A stretch of DNA of 64,000 bases, taken from the IMG/VR virus record IMGVR_UViG_3300030329_004481; one strand, 5' to 3'. The notes beneath the pieces were generated by a model. The model was not told the origin of the DNA and ran no database searches. It worked only from the letters and a program-made list of their open reading frames with translations. Each line of letters opens with the position of its first letter. Position 1 is the first letter of the stretch. Of this stretch, positions 7,729-12,448 are shown piece after piece. This stretch comes from a virus. Both the position numbers and the translations under genes were made by a program.

Positions 7729-10194
7729 TTATGCCGCAATCTTATCAATCATTGAATTGAGAATGACTCGGTTGGAAAGTCTGTTGCCGACCATCTTCTT
7801 GAAGGCGGTCTTGATTTGACCCTTGGTCGCATCTTCAGCAAGTCCGTCTAGGTTAGTATCTTCAAGTCCGCGCATCTTATCAATATTGATAAAATATCTT
7901 TCATCATATCCATGAGTATTTTCAACTCCAACAGAACCTTTCTTAAATGATTCAGAATATTTCTGCCAATCATTATTATCAAAATCCCAGAATCCACGTT
8001 GTTTCCACCATCTGCGAGGTGCCAAGAAAATTCCAAGGACATTTATACCAGTTGATGCTTTGACATATTTCAGAAGATCTTCAGTTTGAGAAGCACCAAG
8101 ATCAAAAGTTTTTCCATTTCTACATTTGATAAATGCTCTATGATTCCCACCATAACTGTATCTTCTTCTGGCCGCAATAGGATGATACCCATTCACAAAA
8201 TAATTTCCATAGTTCTGATTTAATCTTGAGTCTCTATATTGATCACCAGTATCAACCCATTTATCACCAAAATCAATCATTGCGTGTGAAGTTCTTGATT
8301 CACCATCAGTAAGATAAACCGCATTAACAATTTCTGCACCAGTTGATTTTTTAAACTCATAAACAATTGATGGAGTAAGAATAATTGAATCATCAAGTGG
8401 AGTACCACCGAGACCAAAAGAATGTGGACATTTTAATTGTGGACCAAATGCGCCCCATCCATATCTATTTCCAATTGAATTTCCAAGTCCAAGAAAATAT
8501 TTTGCACCTTTCTGAAATTCTCTTTTATTCATTCTACTTGAAAGAATATTTAAGAGATGAAAATCACCAGGAAAAATATCACCCTTCTTTGGATTTGTAA
8601 TTCTTTCTTTAATATATTTTTCAGAATTATAATCTTCTCTATAATTGATGTTTGTATGTTGTCTGTTTCGTCGACCATAAGCATCTGAAAACATATAAAC
8701 CTCAAATGAGATTTGAACTTTTTCACAAAATGCAGCAAGAACTAAACATTGTTCTACAGTTTCAGAAATACAATTAGACATTGATCCAGACCAATCAATG
8801 AAAAGTAAAAGTCCATGATTTTTACCATCTGGAAGAACAGTCATTTTTTTGAAAATATCTTCACTATAGCGATACTTGAAAAGATTTCCAGAATCAATGA
8901 TTCCAGTTTTTGCTGTCATTGCACGGGCATGTTGTCCTGCCGCTTTCTTCATTTCAAATTCTTTAGCAAGATAGTTAATGACTTTAGAATGCTTAGTTCT
9001 AAAATTCTTCCATAGATCATTCAACAAATTAGATGCTTCACCAGAAGCACCCCAGCCATCTGTATCTTTTCCATTATATATACCATGATCTGTTGAAGTC
9101 TGTTCTTCAATATGTGTAATCATTTCTTTATAATCAACAATATATTGATTAAGATTAAAATCAGGTTCATTCAAATAAAGATAGTCAGGAGAATTTGCAG
9201 ACTCCGCAAGTAAATCACCTTGATTACTTTCCCATTCTTGATCAGTATATGAAAAAGGTTCAACTTTACTTGCATCAGTTATACCACGATCAGGTGTACC
9301 AAATCCGCCTTTAGGTCCAGTTTGAATTTGTTCAGAATCTTTACCTTCATTTTTTTCTTCGTCAGATTCATCTTGAATATTATTTGATGAAGAATTATTT
9401 TCAGATGATTCACCATCATTTTTTTGACCAGGCCCATCTTGTGTTTGATCTGATTCATTTTCTTCTTCACCTTCACATGAAGGATTGTTACTATCAGAAG
9501 ACTCACCATCGTCATCTGAATTCATTTCCATTGAATCATCATTACCTTCTAATCTTTCAGAAGGATCATTACTTTCATCACCATATTGATTATTAAATGA
9601 ATCTTCAAAATCTTCATGTTGATCAGTGTCAGATTCGTGATCTTTTGAATAGTTCCAAAGTTTTTCAACAACATCAAGAACCTCAGCAAATGTTTCAGTT
9701 CTTTCAACCATCTCAACATATTCACGTTCTTCGTCAGAAAATTCAATGTCAAGGGCAGTTCCACATTTTGTATAAAGATTGATTCTGTCAATCAATTTCA
9801 ATTCATTTAGATCCATTCCTCTGACACCAAAAAAATCTTCTTTGAGAAGTTTGTCATAACCCTCAACCATTTGCTTACCCGCACCAGGAAACTTTCTCTT
9901 GATCTTCTTTTCAATTCTGGCGTCCTCAACTACATTAACAAATGATTTGTAACCTGGACCCCTATCAGAAGGAGTCTGGTGCCAACCATCTTCAGGTGTA
10001 TATCTGGCGTGTCCAACTTCATGAGAACACATCAGGTCATATACAGGACCATTCATCCATTTATATACAGGGAGTAGGAGTTTGCGGTTCTTGAGATCAA
10101 ACATGGCTGTGTCATATTTACCATGTTGAACATCAAGATTTTCTTCCGCCATGAGTTTGGCGACTAGGGATTTGGTTTCTCTCAAATCAGACAT
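7729..10194 (-). CDS. metallopeptidase-like/VWA protein (CobT-like partner of the MoxR ATPase)
   Basis: HEVGH, NVVEDARIE, acidic linker, MIDAS DWSGSM, LTDGE; start placed at MSDLRE after GAGG. Confidence 0.8.
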   Translation of the reverse strand: MSDLRETKSLVAKLMAEENLDVQHGKYDTAMFDLKNRKLLLPVYKWMNGPVYDLMCSHEVGHARYTPEDGWHQTPSDRGPGYKSFVNVVEDARIEKKIKRKFPGAGKQMVEGYDKLLKEDFFGVRGMDLNELKLIDRINLYTKCGTALDIEFSDEEREYVEMVERTETFAEVLDVVEKLWNYSKDHESDTDQHEDFEDSFNNQYGDESNDPSERLEGNDDSMEMNSDDDGESSDSNNPSCEGEEENESDQTQDGPGQKNDGESSENNSSSNNIQDESDEEKNEGKDSEQIQTGPKGGFGTPDRGITDASKVEPFSYTDQEWESNQGDLLAESANSPDYLYLNEPDFNLNQYIVDYKEMITHIEEQTSTDHGIYNGKDTDGWGASGEASNLLNDLWKNFRTKHSKVINYLAKEFEMKKAAGQHARAMTAKTGIIDSGNLFKYRYSEDIFKKMTVLPDGKNHGLLLFIDWSGSMSNCISETVEQCLVLAAFCEKVQISFEVYMFSDAYGRRNRQHTNINYREDYNSEKYIKERITNPKKGDIFPGDFHLLNILSSRMNKREFQKGAKYFLGLGNSIGNRYGWGAFGPQLKCPHSFGLGGTPLDDSIILTPSIVYEFKKSTGAEIVNAVYLTDGESRTSHAMIDFGDKWVDTGDQYRDSRLNQNYGNYFVNGYHPIAARRRYSYGGNHRAFIKCRNGKTFDLGASQTEDLLKYVKASTGINVLGIFLAPRRWWKQRGFWDFDNNDWQKYSESFKKGSVGVENTHGYDERYFINIDKMRGLEDTNLDGLAEDATKGQIKTAFKKMVGNRLSNRVILNSMIDKIAA

Positions 10195-10233
10195 AGGAAT
10201 CCTCAATGGGTTTATCAATCATTTTACAGGTAT

Positions 10234-10262
10234 AGTATACCACAGGTGGGGGAAGAAGTCAA
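10234..10262 (-). promoter_or_regulatory. sigma70-type early promoter
   Basis: AAAAAAC-TTGACT, 17 nt, TATACT with TGTGG extension. Confidence 0.8.
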
Positions 10263-10322: not shown

Positions 10323-10351
10323 AGGATACCATAAATATTTAGAGAAGTCAA
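10323..10351 (-). promoter_or_regulatory. second tandem sigma70-type early promoter
   Basis: AAAAAAC-TTGACT, 17 nt, TATCCT with TGG. Confidence 0.75.
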
Positions 10352-10356
10352 GTTTT

Positions 10357-10475
10357 TTGACCAATTGGCTCCCGGGGAAGGATTCGAACCTTCACGTCCT
10401 CGTCCTGCAACAAAGACAGACCCTAAACAGTGGCCCGTGTCTACCAGTTTCACCACCCGAGAGTCAATTGGTCAA
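10357..10475. repeat. 11-bp perfect inverted repeat bracketing the tRNA (TTGACCAATTG / CAATTGGTCAA)
   Basis: 10357-10367 is the reverse complement of 10465-10475. Confidence 0.85.
10366..10462 (-). tRNA. atypical 97-nt type II tRNA: anticodon GTT (Asn) on a tRNA-Leu-like body, encoded CCA
   Basis: hand-folded: acceptor TCTCGGG/CCCGGGA, G73, CCA; D arm GTG-AAACTGGTAGA-CAC; anticodon arm GGCCA-CTGTTTA-GGGTC; 8-bp variable stem GTCTTTGT/ACGAGGAC; T arm GAAGG-TTCGAAT-CCTTC. Confidence 0.85.
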
Positions 10476-10513
10476 TATCAAAAAAGCAACATAAACATTG
10501 AGAATAAGTAAAG

Positions 10514-10645
10514 CTACTTCAACCAAGTTTCTTCTTCCAGATGTTTAGACTCATGTTCTTTTAATTCTTCAACATCTGTAAAAATTTCATCACATTCAAA
10601 ACAACTATTAAAACCATGCTTTTCATAGAAGTCTTGTTGCGTCAT
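10514..10645 (-). CDS. 43-aa C2H2 zinc-finger microprotein (MTQQDFYEKHGFNSCFECDEIFTDVEELKEHESKHLEEETWLK); not in the ORF track
   Basis: exact C-x2-C-x3-F-x5-L-x2-H-x3-H; ATGA overlap with the upstream aaRS-like stop. Confidence 0.75.
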   Translation of the reverse strand: MTQQDFYEKHGFNSCFECDEIFTDVEELKEHESKHLEEETWLK

Positions 10646-11517
10646 ATTAGATTTGCTTTCTTCATTCCATCGATCATTCTTGTAACACCAATTCCGCCAC
10701 CAAACCTTGGTACAAAATCATGTTCCAAAAATTCATCTAATTCTTTTAATACTCTTTCTTCACCAAATAATTCATAAAGTAAATTTGCATAACCGCCGTC
10801 AGATATTGTATGAAATTGTTCTCTCATCATATCCACATCATCAGCTCTTTCTGCAGAACCAATTGTTTCTTGCCCACCAATAATTACATCACATTTTAAT
10901 GCGGCCATTCCACCAGTAGATAAAGGTGTAGGGTCTTTTTTCATATTCCAGAATGGTGAGGTTGTGTAAGGGAAGTGTGTGAGGAAAAATACGTCTCCGT
11001 ATTCATTATACATATCTGACTCATGTTTAGCGGTAAGTAAGTTGTCAGATGCTGTATACTTACCGCACATCGATAAATAATTACCACCAGGGAAGTGGTC
11101 CGTATATGGTGCCCTTCCATGATCGCACTTAAATCCTAAATGAACGAGTAACTCATCTTCCATCTTAATTAAATCATCAAATGTACCAGGCATTTCAAAT
11201 TCAAACATTGGAAATATAATTTCATGCCTACCAGGTATTGGATTTGGTTCTTGTCTATAACTAGTACTTACACAAAAACAACCAGGAATTTCTGGTCTTG
11301 TAAGCAATTCATATTCTAGCCACATCTGGCCAGTTTGAGGTAGTGGCCAAATTTCACCATTGTATTCGTATGTCGCAACTGTAGTTGGATCTTCACAAGC
11401 GGCAAGAATAGATAATCTATTTTGTGTGTGAACTTCTACAAAGTTTTTAGAAAGAAAAAATTCTCTGAGGCGGGATGTAACAGTAGTGAAATCGTTTGGA
11501 TCAATCAATGATGTCAT
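10642..11517 (-). CDS. class IIb aaRS-like catalytic core (AsnRS/AspRS paralog or archaeal-type asparagine synthetase) lacking the N-terminal anticodon-binding domain
   Basis: motif 1 LREFFLSKNFVEV, LPQTGQMWLE, motif 2 SYRQE..RH..FPMFEFE, ETIGSAER, motif 3 GGGIGVTR; only 291 aa. Confidence 0.85.
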   Translation of the reverse strand: MTSLIDPNDFTTVTSRLREFFLSKNFVEVHTQNRLSILAACEDPTTVATYEYNGEIWPLPQTGQMWLEYELLTRPEIPGCFCVSTSYRQEPNPIPGRHEIIFPMFEFEMPGTFDDLIKMEDELLVHLGFKCDHGRAPYTDHFPGGNYLSMCGKYTASDNLLTAKHESDMYNEYGDVFFLTHFPYTTSPFWNMKKDPTPLSTGGMAALKCDVIIGGQETIGSAERADDVDMMREQFHTISDGGYANLLYELFGEERVLKELDEFLEHDFVPRFGGGIGVTRMIDGMKKANLI

Positions 11518-11542
11518 AAAATTCCTTTCGAGATTTCTTTTT

Positions 11543-11550
11543 TATTTATA
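11543..11550 (-). promoter_or_regulatory. late promoter TATAAATA upstream of the aaRS-like gene
   Basis: exact motif in the intergenic gap, 25 nt upstream of the ATG. Confidence 0.65.
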
Positions 11551-11555
11551 CGATT

Positions 11556-12212
11556 TCAATTCTCTGGATCATAAGATTTGCCTACATCTTTTCCAAATTC
11601 TGTAAAATAACTTAAATCAGTTTCTTTTGCTATTCTATTCTCAACTGAATATACTGTTTGATCTATTAAATAACCTGGATTCTTTTTAAGTCTATTAAAA
11701 GTAAATGCAACATCACTCCAAACAATTCTATTATTTGGATAACAGAAAAAATTACCATCATCCATTTTAAAAAAATGTCCACATTTATGTTCAGGGTCTT
11801 CAGAAAAATTAACATCTAAATTGCCCGCTTTGTTTTCAAAACCCCAATCTAGAGTGAACATATATTCACCCCAATGTTTTTTTCCACTATGGTCTACTAG
11901 TTCTGCTCTCTTTCTCGCAAGTCTTTCTCTCACATTAACATCAATGTATGGTGAAAAACAATCCCAATAATGATGCATATCTAGATCATAAACTGGTGCA
12001 TCTTTTTTCCAACAAAAAGCAGTTATAGGTCTTCTAGTCCAATTAACTCCATTTTCTAATAAACATTCAAATAGTGGAACTCTATGTTCAATACTTGCTA
12101 CTGAATGAATATCAACTACTGAATACTGTCCTTGTCCTTTACTATGATCATACAAATATTCATCCCTTATAAAACAATTTATACAAGGAATATTATGATT
12201 TAAGTATGACAC
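11556..12212 (-). CDS. conserved hypothetical protein of marine T4-like phages
   Basis: CFIRDEYLYD, YWDCFS, YMFTLDW, EHKCGH, YPNNR; GTG start overlapping the upstream TAG. Confidence 0.7.
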   Translation of the reverse strand: MSYLNHNIPCINCFIRDEYLYDHSKGQGQYSVVDIHSVASIEHRVPLFECLLENGVNWTRRPITAFCWKKDAPVYDLDMHHYWDCFSPYIDVNVRERLARKRAELVDHSGKKHWGEYMFTLDWGFENKAGNLDVNFSEDPEHKCGHFFKMDDGNFFCYPNNRIVWSDVAFTFNRLKKNPGYLIDQTVYSVENRIAKETDLSYFTEFGKDVGKSYDPEN

Positions 12213-12448
12213 TAAACTGAAGCATGTGCAATAGGTGACAAAGATGTTTCCCAACCGCCAATAACAATTGCTCCTGTATCTGGATGAGTTAATACTTTAT
12301 ATTCACCATCAACGTCCCATGTATCATCAACTAAGTTTGGTTTATCCACAAAGAGTGTAATAGTACCATCTTTATCTTGGGCATACCATTTCCACTTATC
12401 ATCAACCATAAATTCAAACCTAATACGTTTCTTCTCTGTATTCTCCAT
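12212..12448 (-). CDS. hypothetical protein
   Basis: ORF coupled to neighbours; WYAQDKDG motif. Confidence 0.6.
   Translation of the reverse strand: MENTEKKRIRFEFMVDDKWKWYAQDKDGTITLFVDKPNLVDDTWDVDGEYKVLTHPDTGAIVIGGWETSLSPIAHASV

Follow-up and report, generated by a model that had tools for sequence, protein, structure and literature searches.

Several catalytic modules of aminoacyl-tRNA synthetases are known to act without a fused anticodon-binding domain. Archaeal asparagine synthetase A (AS-AR, PDB 3P8T/3REX) and bacterial AsnA are stand-alone class IIb cores of about 290 aa without tRNA-binding appendages, and AS-AR is not known to be linked to a tRNA gene. EpmA/GenX (PoxA), also a class IIb core lacking the anticodon domain, resembles lysyl-tRNA synthetase (LysRS) and aminoacylates EF-P, a non-canonical acceptor for an activated amino acid. 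Two further systems act on a specific tRNA: GluQRS (YadB), a class I enzyme that modifies queuosine-34 of tRNA-Asp, and the split PylSn/PylSc, in which PylSn is a separate tRNA-binding protein. The locus described here lies in a 64,000-nt stretch of viral DNA (IMG/VR record IMGVR_UViG_3300030329_004481; the whole stretch is hereafter called the window), which belongs to a marine, T4-like cyanophage relative. It combines a class IIb catalytic core of the asparaginyl/aspartyl-tRNA synthetase (AsnRS/AspRS) type with a deviant tRNA(GUU) encoded just downstream. An earlier note on this DNA had read the locus as a candidate three-part, phage-private aminoacylation system, with a small C2H2 zinc-finger protein as the third member.

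The pairing of enzyme and tRNA holds in both directions and is kept in hundreds of phages. Starting from the enzyme, the tRNA follows the stop codon at a distance of 4-180 nt, mostly 4-10 nt, in 76 of 84 phage loci. A scan of viral contigs with a pattern from the 5' half of the tRNA gave at least 120 matches, of which 80 were examined and 61 had at least 850 nt of upstream DNA; the enzyme gene lies directly upstream in 61 of these 61. The Prochlorococcus phages P-SSM2, P-SSM5 and P-SSM7 carry the same gene, annotated as "tRNA ligase" and followed by an 85-88-nt "tRNA-Asn", and in P-SSM2 the module tRNA is the sole tRNA in 252 kb. These counts support a conserved unit made of a core without anticodon domain and a deviant tRNA(GUU), and clearly contradict a lack of linkage in other phages, which the earlier note had named as evidence that would count against it. 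Two parts of the earlier proposal have to be narrowed: the pair is a conserved unit, but the enzyme is not phage-private, as it has cellular homologues without the tRNA, and the expected co-occurrence of three genes in related phages reduces to enzyme and tRNA, the zinc finger being present in only about 6 of about 200 loci. In the literature, a gene-table entry names the enzyme "tRNA ligase" (PMC3037559); nothing beyond this entry was found on the tRNA, on the enzyme family or on the fusions with dihydroorotate dehydrogenase described below.

All three parts lie on the minus strand at the positions previously claimed, according to the listing of open reading frames (ORFs) and ARAGORN. In the direction of transcription the locus comprises:

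11543..11550, minus strand: TATAAATA octamer resembling a T4-type late promoter, 25 nt 5' of the enzyme ATG and within a 38-nt intergenic gap

10642..11517, minus strand: enzyme ORF of 291 aa, class IIb (AsnRS/AspRS-type) catalytic core (PF00152; phrog_29758; AlphaFold2 model)

10514..10645, minus strand: C2H2-like zinc-finger ORF of 43 aa, its ATG overlapping the enzyme TGA as ATGA; a lineage-restricted accessory

10463..10513, minus strand: 51-nt spacer and tRNA 5' leader between the stop of the 43-aa ORF and the tRNA, 11 nt of which pair with the 3' trailer

10366..10462, minus strand: private tRNA of 97 nt (ARAGORN Asn(GTT); Rfam 33.3 bits; fold; 81 bits with the family model R1)

10357..10367, minus strand: 3' trailer strand of the tRNA, from C75, pairing with the leader at 10465-10475 and lengthening the acceptor helix of the precursor

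The enzyme is a class IIb core without an anticodon-binding domain, as the earlier note had stated. PF00152 covers residues 12-287 (60.3 bits, Pfam cut-off 25), the OB-fold anticodon-binding domain is absent because the protein starts at the catalytic domain, and the AlphaFold2 model (pLDDT 88) aligns to catalytic domains alone, at about residues 120-421 of archaeal AspRS/AsnRS. The closest structural matches are the catalytic domains of AsnRS (PDB 8TC8/8H53, 1X54, 9SH8 and 2XTI; Z 26-27, 22-25% identity), headed by human AsnRS (Z 27.1, rmsd 2.6 over 255 residues, 23% identity) and followed by archaeal/eukaryal AspRS (Z 26.5), archaeal asparagine synthetase A (23.4), GenX (23.3) and LysRS (about 23). 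A family profile searched against the PDB finds Brugia AsnRS as its best match (E 7e-10) and does not reach AS-AR or AsnA. Motifs 1-3 are shared with AsnRS and invariant across the family alignment (R88, E90, R97, H98, the arginine of GGGIGxTR and the RxE motif). The motif that discriminates Asp from Asn reads LPQTGQMWLE in the family, like AsnRS (QSGQLYAE, QSSQLYLE) and unlike AspRS (QSPQ..KQ), so that x-E stands in place of K-Q. E68 and R224 are also invariant and align with AsnRS pocket positions (the Glu after QSxQ and the Arg in GSxxR), where they may have the same roles as their counterparts in AsnRS structures.

Despite this likeness, the protein differs from AsnRS in lacking the OB-fold, in scoring 22.2 bits against the curated AsnRS (asnS) model TIGR00457 (cut-off 342.6), in forming a clade of its own and in coexisting with full-length AsnRS in Bacteroidota. 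The match to AS-AR and AsnA is weaker than that to AsnRS and is missing at the sequence level: the enzyme of the window matches none of the NCBIfam asparagine-synthetase-A models NF005052-55 (cut-offs 309-389) at E<0.1, and homologues from the Candidate Phyla Radiation (CPR) reach 18-29 bits, far under the cut-offs. Likewise, the genX model TIGR00462 (cut-off 286.9) does not match the enzyme of the window and gives 21-33 bits with the CPR homologues. In a small maximum-likelihood tree, which took in no AS-AR or AsnA sequences, the enzyme family is monophyletic (ultrafast bootstrap 100) and sister to AsnRS plus archaeal-type AspRS (ultrafast bootstrap 70), with bacterial AspRS outside and LysRS/EpmA as the outgroup. 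This agrees with the placement in the Asn/Asp family made earlier and separates the enzyme from EpmA/GenX, which belongs to the LysRS lineage; no link to EF-P was seen for the enzyme family. From sequence and model together, the enzyme is best explained as catalytically intact, derived from the archaeal/eukaryal-type AspRS/AsnRS lineage and probably endowed with an AsnRS-like amino-acid pocket.

The protein belongs to the phage family phrog_29758 (344 bits), which has no function label. The wider enzyme family comprises at least 265 clusters at 50% identity (E<=1e-30), and of the full-length members listed, nearly all consist of the core alone (about 270-375 aa), apart from a few longer fused forms. 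Three divergent members (P0146, P0113, P0158) have lost the arginines of motif 2 or motif 3, the latter ending, for example, in ...ITQ, and may be inactive paralogues. In one cluster (P0010) the core is preceded by a fused GIY-YIG/NUMOD3 homing-endonuclease domain, a hint of gene mobility.

The tRNA of the window has U1-A72, G73, an encoded CCA, a tRNA-Leu-like D arm and a 9-bp variable arm. Its anticodon loop is CUGUUUA, with anticodon GUU and U37, and the anticodon stem contains an A31.G39 mismatch. ARAGORN, the Rfam tRNA model (RF00005, 33.3 bits against a threshold of 29) and a cloverleaf fold bear out the tRNA with U1-A72, G73 and long variable arm that had been read from the sequence. 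The thermodynamic z-score of the tRNA alone (-0.43) is not significant, and structural support rests on covariation instead. The precursor behaves differently: an 11-bp helix between 10357-10367 and 10465-10475 (minus strand) joins the leader to the 3' trailer, including C75-A76, and extends the acceptor stem, so that the 131-nt precursor has a z-score of -4.1 and 0 of 200 shuffled sequences are as stable. This pairing is kept in a relative (L009) via compensatory changes and is confined to the sub-clade of the window.

Many members of the tRNA family are missed by ARAGORN and Rfam or mislabelled (as Asp, Ile, Glu or "???"), and the family was located instead with a scan for its stems in the fetched loci and with a family covariance model (R1). 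The scan gave 97 distinct sequences, nearly all of them downstream copies from related loci. In an alignment of 62 sequences, 99.9% of the cloverleaf cells are paired and compensatory change is seen in 18 of 20 pairs, a level that 0 of 500 shuffles attain; the D stem is also supported by covariation, though it was not used in selecting the sequences. Selection acts on the cloverleaf. U1-A72 and G73 do not vary in any of the 62 aligned sequences, and G18-G19 and the T-loop are among the invariant columns. Across the 97 sequences G34 and U35 are invariant; 93 have U at position 36 and 3 have C. The body is Leu-like, since tRNA-Leu genes of unrelated bacteria (CPR) reach 62-68 bits with R1, and members of the family 63-87 bits. 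With bacterial type II tRNA-Leu the family shares the D arm with its 3-bp stem and the long variable arm, but it has G73 rather than A73 and a GUU or GUC anticodon. With bacterial type I tRNA-Asn it shares U1-A72, G73 and GUU, but it differs in the long variable arm, in U37 instead of A37 and, in some members, in a non-U33 or a GUC anticodon. The tRNA is thus chimeric, with a tRNA-Leu-like body and a tRNA-Asn-like acceptor end and anticodon, a point on which the earlier description stands.

The length of the variable region differs across the family (13-39 nt), one large subgroup having an 11-bp arm with a CUGCAA-like loop cap, which makes the arm a poor universal recognition handle and speaks against the recognition role that it had been given. 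Natural exchanges point to the other end of the molecule. Two loci with enzymes about 98% identical and matching flanks (L031 and L032) carry an 84-nt GUU tRNA and a 97-nt GUC tRNA, respectively, which share only the acceptor stem and G73; the GUC cassette has G37 and a different D arm, and L039 and L046 belong to the same comparison. In all, three lineages have changed to GUC with the same enzyme. The exchangeable variable arm and even anticodon, together with the fixed acceptor end, fit recognition of the acceptor end only. Two further loci have unusual forms. One member (L004:3940-4033), in which ARAGORN calls no tRNA, has an extra D-loop hairpin and a short variable region. In a contig of a Pacearchaeota-labelled metagenome-assembled genome (MAG), the enzyme is followed by a remnant that resembles the two acceptor-stem halves and GCCA in direct succession (L248:3859-3885), which looks like an internal tRNA deletion or a minihelix.

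The zinc-finger ORF is a genuine small gene, but a clade-restricted add-on and not a core subunit. The ATGA overlap and the Cys/His pattern of the proposed coupled C2H2 finger are there, C-x2-C-x12-H-x3-H being invariant in three orthologues, but the zf-C2H2 match (PF00096, 20 bits) stays under the Pfam cut-off of 25.2. Orthologues 65-72% identical, in the same position and with the same overlap, were found only in L014-L017 and L197, which with the window make up the six or so loci mentioned above. The gene is missing from L004-L008, whose enzymes are 82-85% identical to that of the window, and the finger therefore cannot be a general reader of the variable arm, as the earlier note had suggested. 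Because it is sporadic, the phage module lacks a constant partner of the PylSn kind. A predicted complex of enzyme and zinc-finger peptide scores 0.00, which weighs neither way on binding. The gap before the tRNA, given earlier as about 50 nt, measures 51 nt from the stop of the 43-aa ORF; a similar spacer is also found in L005-L008, which lack that ORF.

Our preferred reading, to which we give a probability of roughly 0.4, is that the enzyme descends from AsnRS, forms adenylates and acts on the acceptor end of the private tRNA. Given the linkage in both directions, an acceptor end that does not vary and a remainder that can be exchanged, a physical partnership between the enzyme and the 3' end of the tRNA is the most economical explanation. 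The module would be a late-transcribed phage operon with two constant parts (enzyme and tRNA) and one optional part (the zinc finger). Having lost its anticodon domain, the enzyme would form asparaginyl-adenylate and exchange the asparaginyl group with the 3' end of the private tRNA, of which the acceptor end alone would be read. The tRNA would be a Leu body carrying the tRNA-Asn identity set (GUU, G73, U1-A72, encoded CCA), and its anticodon and U1-A72 would keep it recognizable to host Asn factors (AsnRS, or non-discriminating AspRS plus GatCAB) or to the ribosome. What the sequences establish is the layout of the locus, its conservation, the linkage and the intact catalytic motifs; we infer that asparagine is the substrate, that the enzyme touches the tRNA at all, and in which direction and to what end the transfer would run.

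A number of observations weigh against this reading. The anticodon is its first difficulty, as an enzyme without anticodon domain cannot itself account for the invariance of G34 and U35, which is left unexplained. Nor does the tRNA look like an ordinary decoding tRNA: position 33 is U in nearly all normal tRNAs and position 37 is normally a purine, carrying t6A in tRNA-Asn, while in the family 14 of 97 sequences have C, G or A at position 33 and 74 of 97 have a pyrimidine at position 37 (U in 71, C in 3). Homologues of the enzyme at 55-64% identity occur without such a tRNA in Patescibacteria, Bacteroidota, Rickettsiales and giant-virus-like contigs, so the chemistry of the enzyme does not require this RNA. 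In the tree, tRNA-linked and tRNA-less enzymes are intermixed and have a common motif 2 loop, and show no sign of tRNA-specific adaptation. Core-bearing Bacteroidota also have a full-length AsnRS. Finally, genes of the family recur beside that of dihydroorotate dehydrogenase (DHO_dh, PyrD) or in fusion with it, which a plain synthetase role does not predict; the tRNA-less, pyrD-linked homologues are the second feature that the reading leaves unexplained.

These cellular homologues are widespread. A scan of species-representative genomes gave 414 loci at 55-70% identity, most of them in Patescibacteria and others in Chitinophagales, Saprospiraceae, Rickettsiales and further groups; the viral loci number at least 599. 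Neighborhoods were counted in 80 of the 414 loci; the tRNA is present in only 4 of these 80, which look like phage DNA binned into MAGs. The strongest rival explanation builds on the neighboring genes. In this account, the core is a tRNA-independent ligase of pyrimidine synthesis, an auxiliary metabolic gene that would use an Asn- or Asp-type substrate and ATP and hand dihydroorotate or a close analogue to DHO_dh; the phage tRNA would then be an independent addition, such as a scaffold for Asn made by host enzymes or a supplement to decoding. The association takes several forms. PyrD-core fusion proteins of 584-661 aa (L084:4001-5785, which is P0005; P0001-P0009) are found in giant-virus-like contigs. 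In five Bacteroidota loci a true class 1A PyrD (404 bits, cut-off 301) lies directly 5' of the core, with a divergent pyrE-pyrF fusion. A Candidatus Bandiella operon has the order core-pyrF-PRTase-DHO_dh-prs (PRTase, phosphoribosyltransferase), and a Rickettsiaceae MAG has core-DHO_dh-prs. Four phage loci (L061, L082, L136, L172) have a short DHO_dh gene 5' of core and tRNA. A DHO_dh gene is within 3 kb of the core in 11 of the 80 cellular loci, and none of the DHO_dh-linked cassettes contains pyrB, pyrC or carAB. The cellular distribution, the linkage to pyrD, pyrE, pyrF and prs, the fusion proteins and the sporadic occurrence of the zinc finger are new.

We nevertheless consider a pyrimidine ligase unlikely. 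Both DHO_dh and orotidine monophosphate (OMP) decarboxylase are absent from 3 of 5 core-bearing Patescibacteria genomes and from the complete genomes of P-SSM2 and P-SSM7, and most tRNA-linked phage loci have no DHO_dh nearby. As some core-bearing genomes lack PyrD and PyrF, no single metabolic story fits all contexts. The account also leaves unexplained that the tRNA is never seen without the enzyme, and we know of no such reaction for a class II core. A replacement of PyrB by the core in Bacteroidota was considered and not borne out: pyrB is absent in 7 of 7 core carriers but also in 17 of 34 relatives without the core, and its absence is thus a clade trait, which removes a possible argument for the pyrimidine role.

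Some observations on these genomes are recorded here in their own right. Besides long TATAAAAA repeats, the contigs with fusions have genes for RING-finger, AAA and thymidine-kinase proteins, and are on these grounds probably eukaryotic giant viruses. Among 41 related Bacteroidota (G006-G048, relatives of a Chitinophagales MAG), 24 have no aspartate carbamoyltransferase that exceeds the curated cut-off; a pyrC-like gene is present in all five genomes checked (G006-G010), and pyrD or pyrE-pyrF stands beside the core where examined. The first step of pyrimidine synthesis may be unusual or missing throughout this clade. Dus lies directly 5' of the core in 22 of the 80 loci, all of them in Patescibacteria; this adjacency is maybe one inherited arrangement and is given little weight.

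An improbable alternative is that the enzyme is an ammonia-dependent asparagine synthetase of the AS-AR/AsnA kind, supplying Asn for an AT-rich phage with an Asn-rich proteome, while the tRNA-Asn is charged by the host. A stand-alone core of about 290 aa has the architecture of Pyrococcus abyssi AS-AR (Z 23.4, 246 residues aligned), the catalytic motifs are intact, many genomes have the enzyme without the tRNA, and GUU with G73 is the identity set read by AsnRS. The enzyme is, however, nearer to AsnRS than to AS-AR (Z 27 against 23; 23-25% against 18% identity), the sub-threshold NCBIfam results given above for the window protein and the CPR homologues tell against it, and its pocket has L-E where AspRS, the lineage from which AS-AR derives, has K-Q. 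Nor would all carriers be able to use free Asn. Patescibacteria with the core lack asnS and have gatB, and asnS is over the cut-off in 0 of 81 Saccharimonadia, including the 4 core carriers. The tRNA, moreover, is never found alone, and U37 and the variable position 33 are poor for decoding. The same sample disposes of another candidate role, that of the missing AsnRS of Patescibacteria, as the core occurs in only 4 of the 81 Saccharimonadia and is a sporadic accessory gene.

Rather improbable is a specific version of the pyrimidine role in which the core would be an asparagine-dependent dihydroorotate synthase and the phage tRNA a non-decoding Asn scaffold. Dihydroorotate is formally asparagine with a carbonyl bridging both nitrogens. 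The AsnRS-type active site, unchanged, would produce Asn-AMP, which would react with CO2 to give the N-carboxyanhydride, and the side-chain amide would close the six-membered ring. The reaction of aminoacyl adenylates with CO2 to N-carboxyanhydrides is fast (PMC4262824). Carbamoyl-phosphate synthetase, aspartate carbamoyltransferase (ATCase) and dihydroorotase would be bypassed, and the product would feed PyrD, PyrE and PyrF. In hosts that make Asn only on tRNA, non-discriminating AspRS (reading GUU and G73) and GatCAB (reading U1-A72) would load the tRNA, which would then pass Asn to the core by a reversed transfer step. This version would account for the constancy of the anticodon and the loss of the anticodon domain, as well as for a loop ill-suited to decoding and for the pyrD fusions.

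Quite improbable is a role in counter-defense, with an altered tRNA-Asn serving as a spare part that evades host anticodon nucleases or other depletion of tRNA-Asn, and with a charging enzyme of its own because the altered tRNA, or the host, is without a suitable synthetase. The foreign Leu-type body and the variation at positions 32, 33, 37 and 38 around a fixed anticodon would fit such evasion, but three lineages have changed to GUC with the same enzyme, neither the cellular homologues nor the pyrD linkage are explained, and we know of no nuclease that targets tRNA-Asn in these hosts. The weakest candidate, a tRNA-like element that is not aminoacylated and acts in cis on the enzyme mRNA as a 3' processing or stabilizing signal or as a sensor, is very improbable: it would fit a start 4-10 nt past the stop codon in most loci, the absence of the element without the gene and the helix that sequesters the CCA end in the sub-clade of the window, but neither an encoded CCA and an invariant G73 nor the T-loop, G18-G19 and the constant GU of positions 34-35 would be required of a processing signal.

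If the preferred reading holds and the enzyme charges the tRNA, the module would be a naturally occurring pair of synthetase and tRNA in which the anticodon goes unread and recognition depends on the acceptor end of a Leu/Asn hybrid. This would bear on the evolution of tRNA identity and on the takeover of translation by phages, and could provide a compact orthogonal pair for genetic-code engineering. If the pyrD linkage reflects the real job, a synthetase core would have been recruited to nucleotide synthesis in phages, giant-virus-like elements, Rickettsiales and Bacteroidota, which would add a new route or step to a textbook pathway and a new type of metabolic gene to the viral repertoire. 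Both readings concern a family of at least 265 clusters labelled only "tRNA ligase".

Of the transcription signals around the module, the TATAAATA octamer at 11543-11550 occupies the position claimed for a late promoter of the enzyme. The octamer is not enriched in the window (10 observed, 13.4 expected), and 9 of its 10 copies are on the coding strand. Being well placed but unenriched, it is a plausible late promoter. No terminator or sigma-70-like promoter was found between the enzyme, the 43-aa ORF and the tRNA at the window locus. Just 3' of the tRNA and 5' of the next ORF are two sigma-70-like promoters (10323-10351, TTGACT-N17-TATCCT; 10234-10262, TTGACT-N17-TATACT; both on the minus strand and with an extended -10 TG), each within a repeated AAAAAACTTGACTTC block. 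That ORF (7729-10218) encodes an acidic protein of 829 aa without a Pfam match. On the other side, 5' of the enzyme, a 232-aa ORF (11556-12254, minus strand) matches phrog_3704 ("ferredoxin", auxiliary metabolic category; E 6e-46) and no Pfam family. In five phage contigs (L058, L062, L064, L076, L077) a tmRNA is encoded a few kb from the module.

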